A stretch of 24,330 nt of DNA. It comes from a virus. How positions within the stretch are numbered: position 1 is the first letter of the stretch; each line of letters starts with the position of its first letter. This document shows positions 1,771-23,835 of the stretch, piece after piece. The notes beneath the pieces are model-generated. The model saw only the letters and a program-made list of their open reading frames with translations, searched no databases and was not told where the DNA came from. The stretch is taken from UHGV virus genome UHGV-0242784; one strand, 5' to 3'. Both the position numbers and the translations under genes were made by a program.

Positions 1771-2001
1771 TCAATTCAAGAGTCTCATTGCTGCTTCCAG
1801 AATTTCTTCTGAAGTTACATGTCGATCCGCTGCTACATAAATGACTTTATGATCTCCGGTCAGAGATGGAAACCCTGCAGCCATTACAGTGAGATGTGTT
1901 GTTTCGCCATTTGGATATTCACGCATGATGGTGTTAACTCCGGTCATCACTGGCACTACCATTGCTGGTTCAGAGTTAAAAAAAACTATTATTTTTTTCA
2001 T
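1771..2001 (-). CDS. Hypothetical protein (76 aa from internal Met; ORF could extend to 2040)
   Basis: ORF track; lies between the gnsB-like and cspI-like genes on the late strand; start ambiguous. Confidence 0.4.
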   Translation of the reverse strand: MKKIIVFFNSEPAMVVPVMTGVNTIMREYPNGETTHLTVMAAGFPSLTGDHKVIYVAADRHVTSEEILEAAMRLLN

Positions 2002-12576: not shown

Positions 12577-13244
12577 GCGTTAGTTTCTCCACAACCAGAA
12601 GCAATCGACGCCACGACGCCCGGAGCTGCACACTCGCGGGCGTCATTACTTTCTGAAACGCAAAAAATTTTGTAGACAAGTGCTGCATGCTCCTGCAGCT
12701 TCGAAATTGAGAGGTACAGCTCGTCGTTAATTGCTGTCTTCTCATGCGGTTCCACTACACCGTCTTCGATTGCCGAACGAATCTGTTTTGAATAACTGCC
12801 GATCTGTTCAATGACTTCCAGTAAACGCTGGTTAATATCGGCATTGTCCACATCCTCGACGTCAGGAAGAGACACAAAGACGCCATTTGCAGACTGCGCC
12901 ACAGCGTCAGCAATGAAGTGAGTGCCACCAGCACGTTGTAAAATCATTGCCCATCCCAGCGGGAAAATCTGATCGCCATCGGCACGAAGGCGGTTAAATA
13001 ATGCGTTCTCTGTTACATCCAGCCAGTCAGCTGCTTCAGCGTAACCACCCGGCAACGCTGCGATAGTTTTTCTGACAGCTTTCACGTACCACTCAGGCTG
13101 TTTTTCTACTTTCCAGTGATACTTACCCACGGTTAGCCTCATCGTTCTGTGGTTTCTGTTAATCGATTTATCCATTAGATTTTTCATAAAGCTCAGGTTT
13201 AAATGGCAACCGTCCGCAAGTTCTATATGCTGCTTCTGCTGCAC
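12573..13244 (-). CDS. YdaT-like protein in the cII position (start uncertain; ORF overlaps the cro-like gene by 77 nt if 13244 is used)
   Basis: ORF track; N-terminus [12 protein letters not shown] resembles my recollection of Rac YdaT; alternative starts at 13187, 13175 or 13142. Confidence 0.5.
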
Positions 13245-13368
13245 GTCCTTTTGGAATTAACTGGCCCGGACGGTTTCGCCACTGATAAACGGCCTCAGTT
13301 GTTATGCCGAAAAAAGCAGCAACTTTCTCAATACTGCCGAAGTAGCTTTCGATATCGTCAGTTGTCAT
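13168..13368 (-). CDS. Cro/YdaS-like HTH regulator (66 aa), divergent from cI
   Basis: HTH-like segment IEKVAAFFGITTEAVYQWRN; SD GGAGGG 5 nt upstream of the ATG; divergent arrangement with the repressor gene. Confidence 0.65.
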   Translation of the reverse strand: MTTDDIESYFGSIEKVAAFFGITTEAVYQWRNRPGQLIPKGRAAEAAYRTCGRLPFKPELYEKSNG

Positions 13369-13377
13369 ACGCCCTCC

Positions 13378-13445
13378 AAAACTAAGTTTTATTAGATGTT
13401 AATTATCAATCTATCTTAGGTCAATAAAAACTAAGATTACTTAGT
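13378..13445. promoter_or_regulatory. Immunity-region operators and PR-like promoter: O1 AAAACTAAGTTTT (13378-13390), O2 ACTAAGATTACTTAGT (13430-13445), PR -10 TAACAT / -35 TTGACC on minus strand (13396-13424)
   Basis: Palindromes and hexamers read directly in the 98-bp cI/cro-like intergenic region; both operators share the ACTAAG half-site. Confidence 0.6.
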
Positions 13446-13466: not shown

Positions 13467-14093
13467 ATGGAAACGGTTGGTCAGCGTATAAAAGCTCTGA
13501 GAAGGGTTACCAGAACGTCCCAGAAAGAATTGGGTAAATTTTGTGGGGTAAGTGACGTTGCTGTGGGGTACTGGGAAAAAGACATCAATGTCCCTGGCGG
13601 GGAAGCACTTTCGAAATTAGCGAAGTTCTTTAATACGTCAATAGATTACATTCTTTATGGTGCTGAGTTTGAAGGCAAACTAGTCACAAACATGCGCAGA
13701 GTTCCTGTAATTTCGTGGGTTCAGGCTGGGCAGTTTACTGAGTGCAGGGCAGCAGAAGTGTTTAGTGAAGTGGACAAGTGGGTAGATACATCTTTAAAGA
13801 TTGGTGATAACTCATTTGCATTAGAAGTTAAAGGCGACTCCATGACTAATCCTAATGGCCTCCCAACAATACCAGAAGGTGCAACAGTGATTGTAGATCC
13901 TGATGCAGAACCTCGTCATGGAAAAATAGTCATTGCTCGACTTGATGGAACGAACGAAGCTACAGTAAAAAAATTAGTCATCGATGGTCCTCAAAAGTTT
14001 TTAGTGCCATTAAATCCACGGTATCCCAACATCCCAATCAATGGTAATTGCCTGATCATTGGTGTAGTCAAAGGAGTTCAATACGAACTCTAG
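13467..14093 (+). CDS. cI: CI-type prophage repressor (HTH-XRE N-domain + S24 LexA-like autopeptidase C-domain)
   Basis: N-terminal HTH (QKELGKFCGVSDVAVGYWE), linker, C-terminal S24 domain with GDSM serine motif (EVKGDSMTNP) and a downstream Lys (KKLV); divergent from the cro-like gene. Confidence 0.9.
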   Translation: METVGQRIKALRRVTRTSQKELGKFCGVSDVAVGYWEKDINVPGGEALSKLAKFFNTSIDYILYGAEFEGKLVTNMRRVPVISWVQAGQFTECRAAEVFSEVDKWVDTSLKIGDNSFALEVKGDSMTNPNGLPTIPEGATVIVDPDAEPRHGKIVIARLDGTNEATVKKLVIDGPQKFLVPLNPRYPNIPINGNCLIIGVVKGVQYEL

Positions 14094-14115: not shown

Positions 14116-14150
14116 CACCAAACTAAGAAAAGTTTGGTGTTTCCTCTTGC
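14116..14150 (+). terminator. Hairpin after cI (CACCAAACT-AAGAAA-AGTTTGGTG) with T-rich tail; terminator or operator-like palindrome
   Basis: Perfect 9-bp inverted repeat 23 nt after the cI stop; the arms contain the operator-like AAACT/AGTTT sequence. Confidence 0.45.
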
Positions 14151-14154
14151 CTTA

Positions 14155-14167
14155 AAAACTAAGTTAA
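14155..14167. promoter_or_regulatory. Third operator-like site AAAACTAAGTTAA (11/13 match to O1) inside a candidate promoter TTGCCT-N17-TAGATT (14147-14175, plus strand)
   Basis: Direct sequence comparison with O1; candidate OL/PL equivalent. Confidence 0.4.
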
Positions 14168-14256
14168 GTTAGATTTAATATCAAAGATAACGAACAGGCA
14201 GGACGCCCACAAAGTAGCCTCCTGGGGCAAATGAAGTCCAGGATGATTCGTTAGCA

Positions 14257-14282
14257 ACAAAAAAGCGCCCTATAGGACGCTT
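14257..14282 (-). terminator. Rho-independent terminator for the 173-aa gene (GCGUCC-UAUA-GGGCGC with one G-U pair, then UUUUUU on minus strand)
   Basis: Stem-loop at 14265-14282 with a U-tract (complement of AAAAAA 14259-14264), 40-60 nt downstream of the stop at 14324. Confidence 0.55.
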
Positions 14283-14323
14283 CGATCTTTAACAATCTGG
14301 GTATCATCCAACCAATGCAAGAT

Positions 14324-14845
14324 TTAAGGAATCCAAGGCGAATTCAGATCTCGCCCCGACTCACGTAATGATCTTGGTCGTTCGTACATCGGATTTTTTT
14401 CCATAAGAAATTTATTTTCACAGTGAAGGCAACGGCTTGTAAGAAAATGAGAAGTTTTACCTACTGGAAGCGGATGAAGTATCGATTTTATATTTTTGGA
14501 ATAACAAAGTGGGCACAGATGCACAGTTATTTCTTTTCCACTCACAATTTCATTTTTAGAGTAAACAAAAGCACCAGAGTCAAGCTGATCAAGGACATAT
14601 CCTTCTACCTTGGCACAAAAATCTTCAAACTCTGCAATTTTTGCTTTGAGATGCATCACCTCTTCATCACGAAGGCGGATCGCATCGCCAAGAGAGAAGC
14701 ATTCTGCCTGAAGCGTGATTAGTTTGTTCTGGAGTTCAATGGTTGCAGCTTTAACTTCTGCATCCGTTTTCGCGTCATTAATAACCTTAGCAAGACCGGC
14801 AGTCTCCTTTATAGCAGCCATAGCCGCAGACAGTTCAGCTATCAC
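14324..14845 (-). CDS. Hypothetical coiled-coil + zinc-ribbon protein (173 aa), lone gene convergent with cI
   Basis: ORF with apparent GTG start (alternative ATG at 14824); N-terminal heptad-like Ala/Leu/Lys/Glu-rich region; C-terminal CPLC...(x22)...CLHC; own terminator. Confidence 0.6.
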   Translation of the reverse strand: MIAELSAAMAAIKETAGLAKVINDAKTDAEVKAATIELQNKLITLQAECFSLGDAIRLRDEEVMHLKAKIAEFEDFCAKVEGYVLDQLDSGAFVYSKNEIVSGKEITVHLCPLCYSKNIKSILHPLPVGKTSHFLTSRCLHCENKFLMEKNPMYERPRSLRESGRDLNSPWIP

Positions 14846-15131
14846 GTTGAATACTCAGCTAGTTGTTGGGGGTATCCAGATTAACCAAATCCTTGTTGTT
14901 GGGGAATAACCAGGTCCACCTCGCCTGATGTGGCTAAAAGCAGGCACATAACAGCTAAGTATTTTCAACCAGAGAGAATCCTTAGCGTTGTGGTGAATGC
15001 GGCTCAGCGCACGCGGGTTAAGGTTGAGGCTGACAGTCGACCTTCTGTGGATACCCACCCGTCTGGTGTGCAACCTTCGCCAGGCACCGGGAGGCACCCG
15101 GCACCACAACTTTATGCTGTGTGTAGTCCTG

Positions 15132-15176
15132 GCGGTACCAGTTTGTACCCTTGCTTCCGGCTGGTACCGTCCTTTT
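15132..15176 (+). terminator. Terminator-like hairpin (CGGTACCAG ... CTGGTACCG, 19-nt loop) followed by TCCTTTTT
   Basis: Perfect 9-bp inverted repeat followed by a T-tract; inside the non-coding leader of the accessory operon. Confidence 0.5.
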
Positions 15177-15265
15177 TACAAAACAGAGAAGAGCATCACC
15201 GGACGACGGGCTCATAACCCAATCCATCCGGGCGGCTGCCACCGCAGGTGTTCTTCTCTGTTTTG
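15177..15265. repeat. Perfect 15-bp inverted repeat (ACAAAACAGAGAAGA / TCTTCTCTGTTTTGT) enclosing 59 nt with internal GC-rich hairpins: candidate structured RNA element
   Basis: Arms at 15177-15191 and 15251-15265 are exact reverse complements; the enclosed segment has further local pairing (GCGG-CTGCCA-CCGC). Confidence 0.6.
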
Positions 15266-15314
15266 TGGAGAAACTAATCGGCCTTGCAGGGTCGATATGA
15301 TGAGGAGCAGCAAA

Positions 15315-15677
15315 ATGGCTAGCGAACGCAGTACTGATGTGCAGGCATTTATCGGGGAGCTGGACGGCGGCGTATTTGAAACCAAAATCGGCGCAGTTCT
15401 CAGTGAAGTCGCTTCCGGTGTGATGAACACGAAAACCAAAGGTAAGGTCTCGCTCAACCTGGAAATCGAACCATTTGATGAGAACCGTGTGAAAATCAAA
15501 CACAAACTCTCATATGTTCGCCCGACTAACCGCGGGAAAATTTCCGAAGAAGACACCACCGAAACGCCGATGTATGTCAATCGCGGTGGTCGCCTGACTA
15601 TTCTGCAGGAAGACCAGGGACAATTACTGACTCTTGCCGGTGAGCCTGACGGAAAATTACGCGCAGCAGGTCATTAA
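15315..15677 (+). CDS. YfdP-like hypothetical protein (120 aa)
   Basis: ATG at 15315 with SD AGGAG 7 nt upstream; the N-terminal extension in the ORF track (from 14997) is rejected; size and order match the CPS-53 yfdP-yfdQ-yfdR-yfdS cluster as I recall it. Confidence 0.6.
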   Translation: MASERSTDVQAFIGELDGGVFETKIGAVLSEVASGVMNTKTKGKVSLNLEIEPFDENRVKIKHKLSYVRPTNRGKISEEDTTETPMYVNRGGRLTILQEDQGQLLTLAGEPDGKLRAAGH

Positions 15678-18601: not shown

Positions 18602-21600
18602 TCACACGCTGCGCCTTCGAGAATATTCATTTAATCGCTGATAACGAACATCTTGCTCCAGTTGTGGAGCAGCTTGAACAATTTGAAGCAAGCATTGCCC
18701 CAACTCTCGAGGCCCCCAGTGTTGTTCGGCAATCACGGCATTCAGCAGGGATAGAGCGTCCGCAGGATATCGGCTGCAAATATCTGATTCTAGCAAAAGG
18801 CGAACGTCGTAGCTAAGGTGTTCGAGCGGTTGCAGCCAGTCCTGCACCACTGCCAAAGCCGCCGGAAATTCACCTCGGGCAGCAATCACCATACGAGTCA
18901 ACGATTCGGATATGCGTGGGGTGGCCAAGTTGCGGGACTTTGGCCAAACCTGTTGCCAAAATGGCTGGACACGATTTTTCCAATACTCCTCGCGCTGATC
19001 GCCCGCACCTTCAAGTGCCTGGTATAACGCCTGCGCGGCTACCTCCAGACCTTCTTGTGGAAGAGCACTAATTGCCGTTCGGAACTCCTCCACGGTATAT
19101 CCCTCGGTAGGGCCCAGAGCTGCATAAGTCAGGAAAGTAGCGAATTGCTGCCGGTGCTCGCCAAGATCAGAATAGTGATTGGCGCTCTCCAAAAAATCTG
19201 ACTTGAAAGCTATCAGCAACGGTTCATACAGGCGTGGCGACCAGAGGAAGCCTTCCCACACAGCTTTTGCTTCGACGGGATTACTCCAAGCAAACAAGGG
19301 CAATAGATACTGTTCGGTCCAAGGTCGATCTACGCGAAAAAATGCGATCAGCCGCGACCCCAGCAACACCCGACCATGGCGGAATAGCTCTATCTGTACA
19401 TTACACAATTTGGTGAAAAGTGTTTTCAATTCAACAGGAAGCAAATCATTGTCATTCGGGTTCTGTTTGAACCATAGGGTGATCAGTGATTGCGTGACAT
19501 GCCCAATGGGATGATTGATCGCCGTAGAAACAGGATCATAGGTCTCAATTCCGTTTCGAATGGTGCTAGACTCTGGGCTTGTTTCTATCATCAGAACCCG
19601 ACGACAAAGGGCCAGTAGAATCTCCTCGTGGCAGAGGATGGTCTTCGAAGCCTCCTCCATCCACCAAGTGACAGCGTGGGAAATCTCCTGAAGTACTGCG
19701 TCAGGCATGTCAAGCACCAACGGTGCGGCGTACCGCCACGAACGCAAAATCATCCCTGGTTCAGCCCAAGTCTGCAGAGCTTCACGCCACCGACCAACAG
19801 GCCACACATCATCTTGTGATAGTTTACTTAACGCATACAGACTGTGAAAAAAGCGCGTACGGCAAACATCACTCCAAGTGTCCTCATAGAAAGGCAGTCT
19901 TTCTGGCATAGGCTTTGCGAGCCATTGCACTAATTCCTGCCACTTACGGGGCGCAATGTCGACATCTATATTCTCCTCGAAGCCTGGATCACCGGTTCCG
20001 CTCATCCAGTGAGAGAATTCATCACGCTCGTTGGTTGCCAGTTGCCATTTTGGGTATGCTGTGGATATTTCCGTCAAACGTGTAGCCGCAGACTCTCCCA
20101 AAACAAGGCCCGCTCCCCTGAGCTTCGCTAGACACAACCAGACGGAATGAGCCACCAAATAATGCCACCTGTCTGCTTCCAAATTATCCTCGTACATCTC
20201 GCGCGGAGGCCCTGCCAAGATAGCAGTTTCCAGACGCTCTTGTGCAATTCCTGTCAGATGTCGTCCCTGCAAAACAAACAGTCTGAATACCTCTCGCCCA
20301 GTATCCGTGGCCCACAACCACCATGAACCGTCCTCTAACAACCAATTAACCCACCGCTCAGGTGGTATGCAGTTGTCTTGGCTTGCGGCAAACAGTGCCA
20401 GACGTTTGAAGGTGGGATATGGCAACTCAAACCAATTCTGAGCAATGCGCGTGGCCTGATCGCTGTCTTTGGCTCGAACGGCTAACCATGAATCCCGAAG
20501 TAATTCAATCAGGCTCACCCAATCGCGGAACCCCCGGTTCTGCCAGTGCGGAGTGATGGACGGCAAATCCCAATGCGAGCGGTCGTGACGATCGTCGGAC
20601 TCTCCCAACTCCCGCAACAAGTCCAGTGCATCACGCAACAACTGCTGAAAATCTTCCAACAGGTATGGCAAGGACGATTTCCATGACTCGTCAGCAAGGT
20701 CGAACAGGGTTGAACGTACGTAATCAGCAGTCAGCACCAGCTCCCAATCCACCAATTGCTTGATTCGCAAGGGTTCATCAGTGCTGCTCGAATCGTCTTC
20801 ACTATAGCGAAACGGCCGCCTCAACATAACCTTGGGAGAAAGCAACTCGCGTAACTCCAAGCGCAATGTAGTCGTCAAGCCTTCATTCTTTAAGCGGTTT
20901 TGCCAACGATACAAATCCAGGTTCTGCAATGGCGATTTCACACGACCACTAAGCAGAAGCCGCCATAAAGTAGACATAGGTGGACCAGGAATAGCCAGGG
21001 GGGAATGCAAGAGAATTTCATCTAACTCAAAAGTCTTACGCTCCCGCATCAGTGCTGCTAAGCGATCTAGTTCGCTCTCAATCAGAAACATCCAACGGTC
21101 GTGTATTTGTCCGCCGCGTTCAGCAATCCATATGATCAACCTAGGGTCGCCCAGATAACGAACTAGCCAACGGGCTATATGGGACATTACGTCATCCCAT
21201 TTGCTAGCACTGACACATCCAGAAACCAGCGACATCTGCAGGGCCAGCTCATAGGGCGCAGGACGCTGAACCAGACTGAATCGGAGTTTCGGGTCAATTT
21301 CGACATGCGGAGATACACAAAAGCGTGGCAGATCGCTGTATTTAAATCGTTCGTCCGAGAAAGCTTTCAATAACCAATCCAGCGGCGGTGCAGGATTGAG
21401 TTCCGCAAAGCGTTTTGCTGGTAAACCTGATTTATCTGACAAGGCCCACAACATCCGACCAACGAAATCGTCCTGACGAGTGCTGTCCTGCGGGCGGGCC
21501 AGAGCATGTTTGACGACTATAGCCTCTTTGCCCTGTATACCATCTCGATAAGTATCTGCCCAAGCGTGCAACGTTTGATGCAGCACTGAATGATCAGTGG

Positions 21601-22429
21601 AGCCCGCCGGTACGGTGTAAAGGATAGGAGTGACCCCTTTGGCCTCCCACTCGATGGCTTTCCGGTGCTCCTGCCCCGGCTCACACTCCCCCAGTGCCCA
21701 TACTTGTGGTGTGACTTCACCGAGCCTCCGATCTGCTGCAAGCGCATCCATCATGTAGCGCAGTACCGGGTCGTTGATGCTGTAGCCAACGAAGCAGACC
21801 ACATAGTTACGAAATAACTCACTCACAAAGCGAGCTGCCCAACGCTCAGTGAGATAAGCCAAGCCAAAGTCACCGCTGGTAACAACCAGACGATTCAGGG
21901 CAGTATCATCCGCCTTTTCCGGTAACAGCCCATGCAGGTATACAAGTCCATCCCAGCGGCTGTTTTTTGGAATTGGCAGCATCGGCGCTACATAGGCCTG
22001 AAAAGCCTGGCCTGTACGTTTAGCTGCCACATGAAAGAGACGGTCAAAGTTGGTAGTGACCAATCGAAGGGCACCCTCGCGGCTACGGGCTAAACGTAAC
22101 AGCGCCGCCTGAGTATCAATAGCGCCCCTACGACGGAGCTTTGGCTTAAGGGCTTTTTCCAACGCGCGTCGGACGGCTATACGCTGCCCTGGTAAGCGCC
22201 GTTCCAGCAAATCTAATGTGCCGTCAAATTGCCCACGCTCGAAAACCTCACGCTCAATTTCTGAAAGTGTTGTTCCGTTCCTCTGGTAAATTAGTTCTAC
22301 CAACCCTTTGAAACCAGGTAAACCAGCAGGGTAGGAAATGCCTGCTCCACAGAAGAACACAACGCGCCCTTCCTCGTGCGCCTGCAAAAGCTCATCAGGA
22401 ATATCAGGGCCGTTGGTAATGAATTGCAT
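18602..22429 (-). CDS. Large SIR2-domain protein (1275 aa): N-terminal defence-type SIR2 NADase-like domain + ~1000-aa helical C-terminal region (DSR-like candidate)
   Basis: Uninterrupted 3.8-kb ORF with SD AGGAGG 7 nt upstream; SIR2 motifs in the first ~250 aa: VVFFCGAGIS, VTTNFDRLFH, VYLHGLL, VCFVGYSINDPVL; no Walker A (GxxxxGK[ST]) found by eye. Confidence 0.85.
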   Translation of the reverse strand: MQFITNGPDIPDELLQAHEEGRVVFFCGAGISYPAGLPGFKGLVELIYQRNGTTLSEIEREVFERGQFDGTLDLLERRLPGQRIAVRRALEKALKPKLRRRGAIDTQAALLRLARSREGALRLVTTNFDRLFHVAAKRTGQAFQAYVAPMLPIPKNSRWDGLVYLHGLLPEKADDTALNRLVVTSGDFGLAYLTERWAARFVSELFRNYVVCFVGYSINDPVLRYMMDALAADRRLGEVTPQVWALGECEPGQEHRKAIEWEAKGVTPILYTVPAGSTDHSVLHQTLHAWADTYRDGIQGKEAIVVKHALARPQDSTRQDDFVGRMLWALSDKSGLPAKRFAELNPAPPLDWLLKAFSDERFKYSDLPRFCVSPHVEIDPKLRFSLVQRPAPYELALQMSLVSGCVSASKWDDVMSHIARWLVRYLGDPRLIIWIAERGGQIHDRWMFLIESELDRLAALMRERKTFELDEILLHSPLAIPGPPMSTLWRLLLSGRVKSPLQNLDLYRWQNRLKNEGLTTTLRLELRELLSPKVMLRRPFRYSEDDSSSTDEPLRIKQLVDWELVLTADYVRSTLFDLADESWKSSLPYLLEDFQQLLRDALDLLRELGESDDRHDRSHWDLPSITPHWQNRGFRDWVSLIELLRDSWLAVRAKDSDQATRIAQNWFELPYPTFKRLALFAASQDNCIPPERWVNWLLEDGSWWLWATDTGREVFRLFVLQGRHLTGIAQERLETAILAGPPREMYEDNLEADRWHYLVAHSVWLCLAKLRGAGLVLGESAATRLTEISTAYPKWQLATNERDEFSHWMSGTGDPGFEENIDVDIAPRKWQELVQWLAKPMPERLPFYEDTWSDVCRTRFFHSLYALSKLSQDDVWPVGRWREALQTWAEPGMILRSWRYAAPLVLDMPDAVLQEISHAVTWWMEEASKTILCHEEILLALCRRVLMIETSPESSTIRNGIETYDPVSTAINHPIGHVTQSLITLWFKQNPNDNDLLPVELKTLFTKLCNVQIELFRHGRVLLGSRLIAFFRVDRPWTEQYLLPLFAWSNPVEAKAVWEGFLWSPRLYEPLLIAFKSDFLESANHYSDLGEHRQQFATFLTYAALGPTEGYTVEEFRTAISALPQEGLEVAAQALYQALEGAGDQREEYWKNRVQPFWQQVWPKSRNLATPRISESLTRMVIAARGEFPAALAVVQDWLQPLEHLSYDVRLLLESDICSRYPADALSLLNAVIAEQHWGPRELGQCLLQIVQAAPQLEQDVRYQRLNEYSRRRSV

Positions 22430-22611: not shown

Positions 22612-23835
22612 TCATTTCGAGCCTGAACGAGTACAAGTAACAATCGATTCAACTCTCTCCCACCATGCCTGGTAGGCTTTACGCTGTTCTTCTAGATAAT
22701 CACTCTTGTCATAAACTTGCCATACACCTGGCAGTTTATGACCGAGCATTATTTCAGCAATATGAGGCGCAGTAAGATCAGAAAAGTTTGTTCGTGCTGT
22801 TCGTCTCAAATCATGAAGAGACCAATGAGGAAATTGATACCCCAAACGCCGCCATGCGTACTGCATTAAATTGTAAGGTAGCGACTGCAATGATGTCCGA
22901 CCAACTGGTTCCCTGCTTCCTTCCTTAGTAAAAAGCATATCGGAACCGTTGTTCATAGAGATAACGTATTTTATAAGCTCTTCAACCGGTTCAATAATGG
23001 GCCGCTTTAGCGGTTCGCCTGTTATATCCCCTGTCTTATGTCGTTCTGGTGGTACAGTCCATATTTTATTAATGAAATCAAAATCGTCCACCTTGGCAGT
23101 AATTAGCTCTGAACTACGGCAACCAAAATGCAGCAATAGTTTAATGAAGGCCCGGTATTTAGGAACCATTCGAGAACCATCGATCGCAGCATAAAGGATT
23201 TTAATTTCATCATGTGTCAGAAACCGTTTCTTCTGACCTTTACGGATATCCATATCTTTACCCGTGATATCCGACAGCGGGCGAGTTTCAATGAGCTTTC
23301 TCTTATACGCCCAGACATGGGCCTGCTTTGCGTTAATTAGCAATCGGTCTGCTATTGCTGGAGTCTTAGTGCTAAGAGGCTCCAGGACTTCTAACCAATC
23401 ATGCAATGTAGCTGCATCGTGAGGGATATTCCCGATTTTAGAGAACAGGTGCAGCTCAAACGAGCGGAGTATCTGTTCAGAACCTTTTTTATTTTTTACA
23501 CAATATGCTTCATACCAAGCACGGATCACAGATTCTACCGTCATGGCTTCAGTAGCTTTACGTTTTTCTGCCAGCTTGACCAATCGTGGATTGCGGTTTG
23601 ACTCGAGTTCACCACGAAGACGGATAACTTCTTCTCTGGCCTCTTTTAGTCCAGTTGCCGGGTAAGTTCCGATATCAAGACGCTCACCTTTCCCCGCCCA
23701 CTGATAACGATATTGGAACACTACGCGACCTTTCGGTGATACTCTAACAGACAGACCATCACGATCGGATTTAACCAAAACCTTATCACGTTCCTTTCCA
23801 ACAACTGAACGCAACCACGCATCAGACAGCGCCAT
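22612..23835 (-). CDS. int: Tyrosine recombinase / integrase (P4-type, 407 aa)
   Basis: Catalytic residues in the expected order (R ... HDLRRT ... Y near the C-terminus); N-terminal arm-binding-like region; located at the prophage end next to the host junction. Confidence 0.9.
   Translation of the reverse strand: MALSDAWLRSVVGKERDKVLVKSDRDGLSVRVSPKGRVVFQYRYQWAGKGERLDIGTYPATGLKEAREEVIRLRGELESNRNPRLVKLAEKRKATEAMTVESVIRAWYEAYCVKNKKGSEQILRSFELHLFSKIGNIPHDAATLHDWLEVLEPLSTKTPAIADRLLINAKQAHVWAYKRKLIETRPLSDITGKDMDIRKGQKKRFLTHDEIKILYAAIDGSRMVPKYRAFIKLLLHFGCRSSELITAKVDDFDFINKIWTVPPERHKTGDITGEPLKRPIIEPVEELIKYVISMNNGSDMLFTKEGSREPVGRTSLQSLPYNLMQYAWRRLGYQFPHWSLHDLRRTARTNFSDLTAPHIAEIMLGHKLPGVWQVYDKSDYLEEQRKAYQAWWERVESIVTCTRSGSK

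Follow-up and report, generated by a model that had tools for sequence, protein, structure and literature searches.

The DNA examined here, virus genome UHGV-0242784 of UHGV (24,330 nucleotides; hereafter the window), is a lambdoid, SfV/mEp460-like Escherichia coli prophage, and the subject of this report is the 469-bp region at 14846-15314 that separates a gene of 173 amino acids (aa) from yfdP. The region is 100% identical to a stretch of E. coli FDAARGOS_1258 (RefSeq prophage L001), in which the genes from a Q-type antiterminator through yfdR lie at positions matching those of the window. A cro-like gene on the minus strand (13168-13368) and a cI/LexA-like repressor gene on the plus strand (13467-14093) come first, followed by the minus-strand 173-aa gene (14324-14845), which is ended by a strong minus-strand terminator at 14262-14283, and, beyond the region, by yfdP (15315-15677), yfdQ and yfdR on the plus strand; the yfdP-yfdQ-yfdR operon runs on towards xis and int in the matching RefSeq record and in SfIV. 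Because of its position relative to cI and cro, the operator-like repeats and a promoter match on the plus strand, the region lies in the leader of a leftward, PL-type early operon, about 800 nt from the PL-like promoter. An earlier, sequence-only reading had assigned it to the rightward early operon; the positions of cI and cro place it instead in the leftward operon that leads to yfdP, xis and int. Part or all of the region is present in 2780 of 5426 complete E. coli genomes, and it occurs in 74 phage records as a mosaic, the 3' 185 nt being far commoner than the 5' part. We consider it probable that the region constitutes the 5' part of this operon (PL-like promoter, yfdP-yfdQ-yfdR, xis, int) and carries two plus-strand RNA modules, the first a small RNA (sRNA) ending in a terminator and the second a Y-shaped RNA designated the yfdP-leader motif. 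The proposal of the sequence-only reading that a structured, regulatory RNA lies upstream of yfdP is borne out for the plus strand by covariation and conservation.

The first module, a plus-strand RNA of about 192 nt at 14986-15177, came to light in a permissive Rfam scan as a match to STnc100 (RF02076; 41.2 bits, E = 2.5e-7), with model positions 1-206 aligned at 14957-15179; SfIV and ST64B scored 38.4 and 35.1 bits. The strongest part of the match is the 22-mer CACCGGGAGGCACCCGGCACCA, which is found once in the window and in none of 100 shuffles. Viral contigs fished with 20 nt of this motif supplied more than 100 loci that otherwise share little, and a covariance model built from 40 diverse family members (R1) detects a single copy in the window, at 14988-15110 with 78.5 bits. 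In the family consensus this core domain consists of a closing helix P1, a hairpin H1, a junction helix, a hairpin P4 and an invariant hairpin P5; in the window P1 pairs 14989-14995 with 15102-15108, H1 spans 14999-15014, P4 pairs 15063-15068 with 15078-15083, and P5 occupies 15087-15101. P5 is the 5-bp hairpin CCGGG-AGGCA-CCCGG that, together with the direct repeat AGGCACCGGG/AGGCACCCGG at 15082-15101, had been noticed in the sequence-only reading and is present as described. RNAalifold identified compensatory changes in 12 of the 25 pairs of the 40-member alignment, and these fall in P1, H1, the junction (J) helix (columns 30-32/97-99 of alignment A1) and P4. The comparison of relatives for covariation and compensatory change, suggested earlier and carried out on diverse homologs, gave strong covariation both in this core and in the yfdP-leader.

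The core is also pseudoknotted. In almost every family member 6-11 nt located 3' of H1 are complementary to the P4 loop, through 42 distinct duplexes, and in the window AAGGUUG at 15020-15026 pairs with CAACCUU at 15071-15077. Since the alignment register shifts between sequences, the pseudoknot was scored by comparing cognate with permuted duplexes: the cognate score was 16.6 vs 11.08 +/- 0.52 for the permuted set, and none of 20000 permutations reached 16.6. The structure line of the Rfam STnc100 model lacks this pseudoknot. Downstream of the core, a linker at 15109-15130 (ACUUUAUGCUGUGUGUAGUCCU) is single-stranded in both the minimum-free-energy and centroid folds. This segment, including UGCUGUGUGUAGUC, is a candidate seed; a motif within it, UGCUGUGUG(U/A)AGUC, is kept in ST64B and two other contigs, and no complementary target beyond chance was found elsewhere in the window.

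The sRNA ends at an intrinsic terminator on the plus strand, a stem-loop followed by UUUUU at 15131-15177, which forms the sRNA 3' end and a barrier before yfdP. The sequence-only reading had described a terminator-like hairpin here, and its 9-bp stem (CGGUACCAG/CUGGUACCG, 15133-15141/15161-15169) and T5 run (15173-15177) were found again. ST64B keeps a 9-bp stem of other sequence (GUCGGCGUC/GACGCCGAC) with a T-run, and this conservation, together with the fold, agrees with the earlier view that transcripts must pass a terminator upstream of the yfdP operon. A hairpin with a T-run lies no more than 190 nt downstream of the domain in 102 of 115 family copies (median distance 33 nt), and a T-run directly precedes the yfdP-leader on its 5' side in 96 of 103 distinct loci.

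A close relative of this RNA has been documented experimentally. Sun et al. (2020, PMC7719688) used 5'/3' rapid amplification of cDNA ends (RACE) and northern blotting to define sRNA-17, a 193-nt sRNA from an mEp460-like prophage of E. coli K1 RS218. Their 'full length' primers, taken from the RACE result, set the 5' end at CGUUGUGGUGAAUG, the primer-placed 5' sequence being CGUUGUGGUGAAUGCGCAGG, and the 3' end lies within the terminator GGCGGUACCAG...CUGGUACCG / GGCGGUACCAG...CUGGUACCGCUCUUUU (PMC7719688). Both RNAs belong to mEp460/SfV-type prophages, lie on the same strand between a cI-side minus-strand gene and yfdP, share the 5' start CGUUGUGGUGAAUG, and measure 193 vs about 192 nt; locus, strand and RNA ends thus agree, the mEp460 copy (L004 2856-2989) likewise being followed by its terminator. 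Between the window and mEp460, identity is about 96% over the terminator and the leader downstream of it. Near-identity to sRNA-17 is restricted to the first ~15 and last ~50 nt, and the core represents a divergent allele, its internal ~100 nt being only distantly related; BLAST joins the window and mEp460 only from 15130 onward. The authors reported no Rfam homolog of sRNA-17 (PMC7719688), no link to STnc100/PasD was found in the papers examined, and a literature search on an sRNA at the homologous ST64B site returned nothing relevant.

STnc100 overlaps EcOnc27/sRNA103, an Hfq-binding sRNA encoded just downstream of stx2B (PMC12711010), and has been proposed to share ancestry with PasD, an Hfq-associated sRNA of enteropathogenic E. 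coli (EPEC) identified by RIL-seq, which detects RNA interactions through ligation and sequencing, and validated by northern blot (bioRxiv 10.64898/2026.05.13.724894). The window RNA has in common with STnc100/EcOnc27/PasD the P1 helix UGGUG/CACCA, the invariant CCGGG-AGGCA-CCCGG hairpin, the covarying P4 and a 3' terminator, and all are prophage-borne and oriented as their downstream genes. P1, H1, P4, P5 and the terminator follow one another in the window in that order, and the 22-mer is identical. Judged by homology, 14986-15177 appears to encode the counterpart of sRNA-17, orthologous by position, and to belong as a divergent member to the STnc100/PasD family of prophage sRNAs; the main element of the region would be a new allele within a family already known. 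The first module accordingly combines homology, a covarying structure and a terminator with, for the mEp460 allele, a 193-nt RNA made in lysogens.

The window copy differs from canonical STnc100 copies in its location, in the early-left operon as opposed to the late region (Q-to-lysis or just after stx2B), and in H1, which reads GCGGCUCAGCGCACGC vs CCCCCUGUGCGGAGGGG in canonical STnc100. Most family copies are flanked by a Q antiterminator (PF03589 or PF06530/DUF1133) on one side and a holin on the other, many of them directly behind a TTGACx-17-TAAATT promoter, and the next gene is co-oriented in all 19 sampled loci; the subclass that shares the H1 sequence of the window is found downstream of cI or beside moron-like genes. 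Prophage L001 also holds a canonical STnc100 copy (~1797-1817, minus strand), with a DNA methyltransferase gene to one side and the holin to the other; the window has no late-region copy, so the two prophages differ there. Some phages carry the family in tandem, 2-4 units being spaced at about 250 nt; many of these units have their own terminator and some an apparent promoter. Such STnc100-like arrays were seen in the viral contigs L014 (2325-3350), L023 (373-989), L052, L029 and L064, several units lacking the exact 20-mer used for fishing. The lambda PR'-6S RNA-tR' arrangement and StxS likewise place a short terminated RNA before an operon that needs antitermination, and there, too, the RNA can double as a trans-acting sRNA. 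Many family members occupy the exact Q-to-holin slot, with a TTGACx + TAAATT promoter, whereas the window copy is not beside Q; we know of no conserved pseudoknotted domain in lambda 6S/StxS-type leaders.

The consequences of deleting sRNA-17 bear directly on function. Replacement of its body with a chloramphenicol (Cm) cassette raised yfdP by log2 +6.6 (~95-fold) and yfdR by log2 +4.1, and the authors read both genes as trans targets (PMC7719688). A cis effect of the deletion on yfdP is at least as likely, because yfdP directly adjoins sRNA-17 downstream. In the pKD3 design, the cat gene would point away from yfdP. Several points count against the sRNA interpretation or complicate it. The STnc100 score of 41.2 bits falls below the gathering cut-off of 47; R1 gives mEp460 just 26.7 bits, at the same position, the middle ~100 nt being strongly different; and the single-sequence fold of the sRNA is unexceptional (z = -1.76). 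The homology arm of the deletion primer retains most of the terminator hairpin, and read counts in the deletion data are low (PMC7719688); with the hairpin mostly kept, the rise in yfdP is not simply due to terminator loss and may be a cis or a trans effect. An ordinary base-pairing sRNA would not usually contain a domain that is pseudoknotted and nearly invariant, which hints at a further function. Finally, no convincing promoter lies upstream of 14986, so the sRNA 5' end may be a processing site.

The spacer upstream of the sRNA (14862-14985, plus strand) contains two direct repeats of ~25 nt, with cores CTAGTTGTTGGGG at 14859-14871 and CTTGTTGTTGGGG at 14892-14904. It travels with the sRNA in SfIV (98.7% identity from 14862) despite a different neighbouring minus-strand gene, and may hold a promoter or other regulatory sequence that serves either the sRNA or the divergently oriented 173-aa gene. 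No convincing sigma-70 promoter for either was found on either strand within 14846-14985; the best match nearby is CAGACA-17-AATACT at 14827-14855. The forward primer used for quantitative reverse-transcription PCR (qRT-PCR) of sRNA-17 is also the distal primer of the 'promoter' fragment (PMC7719688, supplementary primer table), which means that the assay detects transcripts starting upstream of the RACE 5' end and hints that this end is a processing site.

The second module begins where the terminator ends. The sequence-only reading had noted a perfect 15-bp inverted repeat enclosing 59 nt, and its arms lie at 15178-15192 and 15252-15266; when G-U pairs are counted the pairing reaches 20 bp, and the repeat is the outer stem of an RNA that is independent of the sRNA. 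This yfdP-leader motif (15178-15266, plus strand) is built of P1 (20 bp, 15178-15197 with 15247-15266), P2 (15199-15203 with 15227-15231), P2a (GGG-CUCAUAA-CCC, 15208-15220) and a variable hairpin P3 (15232-15235 with 15242-15245). In an alignment of 22 diverse homologs 95.5% of cells are paired vs 36-53% with slid partners, and 9 pairs are changed on both sides, with none of 500 shuffles reaching the observed value; in P2, for example, CCGGA/UCCGG covaries with CCGGG/CCCGG and CCAGG/CCUGG. The single-sequence fold is exceptionally stable (z = -4.36; 0 of 200 shuffles). G-U/U-G pairs are kept on the plus strand only (U-G at one pair in 19 of the 22 sequences, G-U at another in 9), and the leader model, R2, scores 67-111 bits on the plus vs 29-43 bits on the minus strand, so the structure is that of a plus-strand RNA. 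When yfdP homologs were sampled through the protein, one genome per species and independently of the RNA, R2 found the leader in 18 of the 27 loci, across many Enterobacterales genera, with its 3' end in all 18 some 45-50 nt before the yfdP ATG; the sRNA model matched only 8 of the 27. No Rfam family matches the leader. Between it and yfdP lie a small predicted hairpin (15277-15296) and an AUGAG (15300-15304) that overlaps the Shine-Dalgarno sequence GAGGAG (15302-15307), followed by the start codon at 15315-15317, all on the plus strand.

The most surprising single feature of the locus is found in the most conserved loop of this leader. The plus-strand segment 15204-15220, CGACGGGCUCAUAACCC, agrees at 16 of 17 positions with the anticodon stem-loop of initiator tRNA-fMet from E. 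coli, and an exact run of 14 nt takes in the three G-C pairs characteristic of initiator tRNAs. The local alignment score is 29 vs a maximum of 23 among 2000 shuffles, and the query itself is sound, being 100% identical in 5426 of 5426 E. coli genomes and annotated there as tRNA-Met; elongator tRNA-Met and tRNA-Ile2 have only the 7-nt loop in common with CGACGGGCUCAUAACCC. The likeness is confined to the anticodon arm: ARAGORN finds no cloverleaf at 15204-15220 and no tRNA or tmRNA in the window. Of the 18 protein-fished homologs, 12 have the loop CUCAUAA and 5 the loop CUCAUUC, while 1 lacks it; 13 of the 18 keep the GGG/CCC stem of three G-C pairs. A natural point of comparison is the thrS operator of E. 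coli, a case of tRNA anticodon-arm mimicry in an mRNA leader. As in that operator, an arm of the 5' untranslated region (UTR) shows a tRNA-identical anticodon stem-loop near a translation start; unlike thrS, the leader copies the initiator tRNA, the gene is a phage gene of unassigned function, and any binding partner is conjectural.

Candidate roles for the leader are an RNase III or 5'-stabilising stem, a loop that kisses the start region, or a true mimic of the initiator arm. That it represents a new class of phage 5'-UTR element mimicking the tRNA-fMet anticodon arm is rather unlikely. Were it correct, the CAU loop could pair with the yfdP start/Shine-Dalgarno region, or the leader could engage the 30S P site with initiation factor 3 (IF3), methionyl-tRNA synthetase (MetRS) or a tRNA-fMet-cleaving, VapC-type nuclease, and expression of the early-left operon would be coupled to the condition of the host initiation machinery. 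Complementary runs between the loop and the Shine-Dalgarno/start region average 5.5 vs 4.1 in control windows, a modest enrichment, and the resemblance to tRNA-fMet may be that of a convergent, YUNR-type kissing loop. A literature search on initiator-tRNA mimics in prophage leaders returned nothing relevant.

A third conserved RNA stands at the head of the operon, upstream of the region. The PL-like promoter (TTGCCT-17-TAGATT, 14147-14175, plus strand) is overlapped by operator-like repeats at 14120-14173, shared with 13376-13445 and of the same type as the cI-cro operators; in dozens of relatives, consensus-like -35/-10 pairs accompanied by other operators are spaced identically from the element that follows. 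That element, the 64-nt PL-leader motif, lies directly after the promoter (14189-14252, plus strand) and comprises the three helices P1 (AACGAA/UUCGUU), P2 (GGC-AGGAC-GCC) and P3 (CCUGG/CCAGG). In its alignment 95.6% of cells are paired vs 23-45% with slid partners, 7 pairs are changed on both sides, and the covariation score is 0.297 vs 0.082, unmatched in 500 shuffles. A local hairpin considered at one stage, GCCU-CCUG-GGGC, gave way to the covarying P3 helix once diverse homologs were compared. The PL-leader is conserved in phages of Shigella, Salmonella, Klebsiella, Yersinia, Pantoea and Pectobacterium, where the promoter/operator sets before it differ greatly. Among 103 pattern-fished loci, 51 have it upstream of the yfdP-leader and on its strand when only exact matches to the motif are counted. 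The PL-leader has no match in Rfam or to the put model described below, and the searched literature yielded no description of this RNA or of the yfdP-leader.

Transcription of the PL-type operon must pass two terminator hairpins, the bidirectional one at 14262-14283 and that at 15131-15177, and the PL-leader is a candidate cis-acting antiterminator by analogy of its position with putL/nutL. Between the PL-like promoter and yfdP the plus strand has no open reading frame (ORF) of at least 30 aa except frames antisense to the 173-aa gene, no homology search for N having been made. The bidirectional hairpin, strong on the minus strand, follows the PL-leader by 10 nt (14262-14295 stretch), and its 3' end overlaps a boxA-like GATCTTTAACAA at 14284-14295. 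We take GATCTTTAACAA to resemble the rrn/lambda boxA consensus; neither a boxB nor an N gene was identified near it, again with no N homology search.

The sequence-only reading had suggested that the region itself might act as an antiterminator, like HK022 put, or as an attenuator. Put into the terms of the elements found here, the first proposal is that 14988-15110 binds the RNA polymerase that has transcribed it and carries it through its own and later terminators into yfdP-int. There are real similarities, in that HK022 putL/putR and the region are both structured RNAs in an early operon of a lambdoid phage, upstream of terminators, and a cis function of this kind would fit a core that is complex, pseudoknotted and nearly invariant in places, copies that are always co-oriented with downstream genes and head long operons (most Q-to-lysis, in the window PL-type), and the absence of an N-like ORF from the PL-like promoter to yfdP. 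However, a put covariance model built from seven RNAs (R3: HK022 putL and putR, HK639, phiEt88, CobraSix, S9-5 and UPF_BP1) recovers putL and putR with 96.9 and 57.8 bits, yet the highest score that it reaches in the window is 9.4 bits (E = 1.2), at another place and on the opposite strand, and it has no match in the homologous loci of SfIV, mEp460, ST64B and the Stx2a phage; R1 in turn finds no match in HK022. The two elements have no detectable relation in sequence or structure, and membership of the region in the put family is rejected; the window element lies ~800 nt from its promoter and is single-copy, R1 detecting no counterpart in the PR-type operon that would correspond to a putL/putR pair. 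The homolog also points away from antitermination by the region, since its transcripts stop at the terminator immediately 3' of the domain and its removal raised, not lowered, downstream expression; tandem arrays of 2-4 units, many with their own terminator and some with an apparent promoter, make no sense for a cis antiterminator, and most family copies are situated downstream of the protein antiterminator Q. We regard a put-like role of the domain as very unlikely. The PL-leader is the closer put analogue, by position only, and is not a put homolog by the model.

An equally improbable alternative is a riboswitch-like attenuator, in which the domain would sense a ligand or protein and toggle the terminator at 15131-15177. 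The domain does have an aptamer-like build: several helices meet in a closed junction, there is a pseudoknot, and certain unpaired nucleotides are invariant. Downstream of it comes a terminator-like hairpin (median distance 33 nt), and AAGGUUG of the window can pair either with the P4 loop or locally at 15038-15045. That alternative pairing is not kept in ST64B, however, and a non-exhaustive search (terminator census plus inspection of the window and ST64B) found no conserved terminator/antiterminator alternative. The downstream genes are mixed (lysis cassettes, yfdP, morons) and so show no common metabolic logic, the family forms tandem arrays, and no Rfam riboswitch matches. The attenuator idea survives only in a weak form, as a terminator that acts as a barrier before yfdP.

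The region is also non-coding, as had been supposed. Its mechanical ORFs (95, 84, 49 and 161 aa, and a 226-aa in-frame 5' extension of yfdP) gave 0 matches in a Pfam search, their frames are broken in the ST64B alignment by 1-nt indels and a 38-nt insertion, and substitutions follow RNA pairing. The Prokaryotic Genome Annotation Pipeline (PGAP) places in the region a pseudogene labelled 'frameshifted hypothetical protein', and in the SfIV record there are overlapping ORFs, all of which, like the mechanical ORFs, are regarded as spurious. It is extremely unlikely that the region encodes a small protein, or that its inverted repeats are protein-binding DNA operators, since, for all that the 15-bp repeat is perfect, that annotators placed ORFs here and that phosphorylated ArcA was reported bound to DNA upstream of sRNA-17, the ORFs lack Pfam matches and are indel-broken in relatives, the leader arms stand 59-85 nt apart around a variable insert, and the strand-specific G-U/U-G pairs and far higher plus-strand model scores are properties of an RNA.

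Other features of the window deserve brief mention. The 173-aa gene, whose product has a coiled-coil N-terminal half and CxxC...CxxC motifs without a Pfam family, opposes the PL-type operon in orientation and is moron-like; SfIV and mEp460 hold other genes in this slot. At curated thresholds, Rfam reports in the window only two cspA elements, far from the region, and weaker matches within the region (DicF, ftsZ-DE, hairpin ribozyme) were set aside as noise. The two full-length cspA thermoregulator matches (RF01766; 2227-2642 and 5473-5912, minus strand; 113.7 and 156.7 bits) imply two cold-shock-protein-like genes in the late/accessory part of the prophage, and in the corresponding stretch of the otherwise matching L001 no cold-shock gene is annotated. 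Downstream of the yfdP operon, minus-strand ORFs of 1275 aa (18602-22429) and 407 aa (22612-23835) have no counterpart at the corresponding position of L001. C4 antisense RNA and IsrK matches (64-84 bits) were found on the minus strand in mEp460 (L004 323-511), ST64B (L005 409-597) and the Stx2a phage (L006 268-456), within an antirepressor-like gene a few genes downstream of cro in the rightward operons; the window has no such match.

For the two-module leader that we favour, the following sequence of events can be envisaged. Transcripts arriving from upstream would stop at the 15131-15177 terminator and thereby make the sRNA, and this termination would keep the yfdP-int operon silent in the lysogen, while the released sRNA might act in trans, as reported for its Hfq-bound relatives. 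On transcripts that read through, the yfdP-leader would control how the message of the first gene is processed, how stable it is or how its translation is initiated. Read-through during lytic growth would be supplied by something else, for which the PL-leader (14189-14252) is the best-placed candidate, on position only.

If these assignments are correct, sRNA-17, described in 2020 as without relatives, is now tied to the abundant STnc100/PasD prophage family, and this family gains a covariation-backed, pseudoknotted structure that is lacking in the Rfam model. The published status of yfdP as a trans 'target' calls for a cis explanation to be excluded, because the gene lies directly downstream of sRNA-17. 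About half of the complete E. coli genomes carry part or all of the 470-bp region, and the start of the leftward early operon presents three conserved structured RNAs in series, two of them without an Rfam match. One of these, the PL-leader, stands where putL does in HK022, and its phages have no N-like ORF from the PL-like promoter to yfdP. Both it and the yfdP-leader offer experimental entry points to RNA-based control of prophage early genes.

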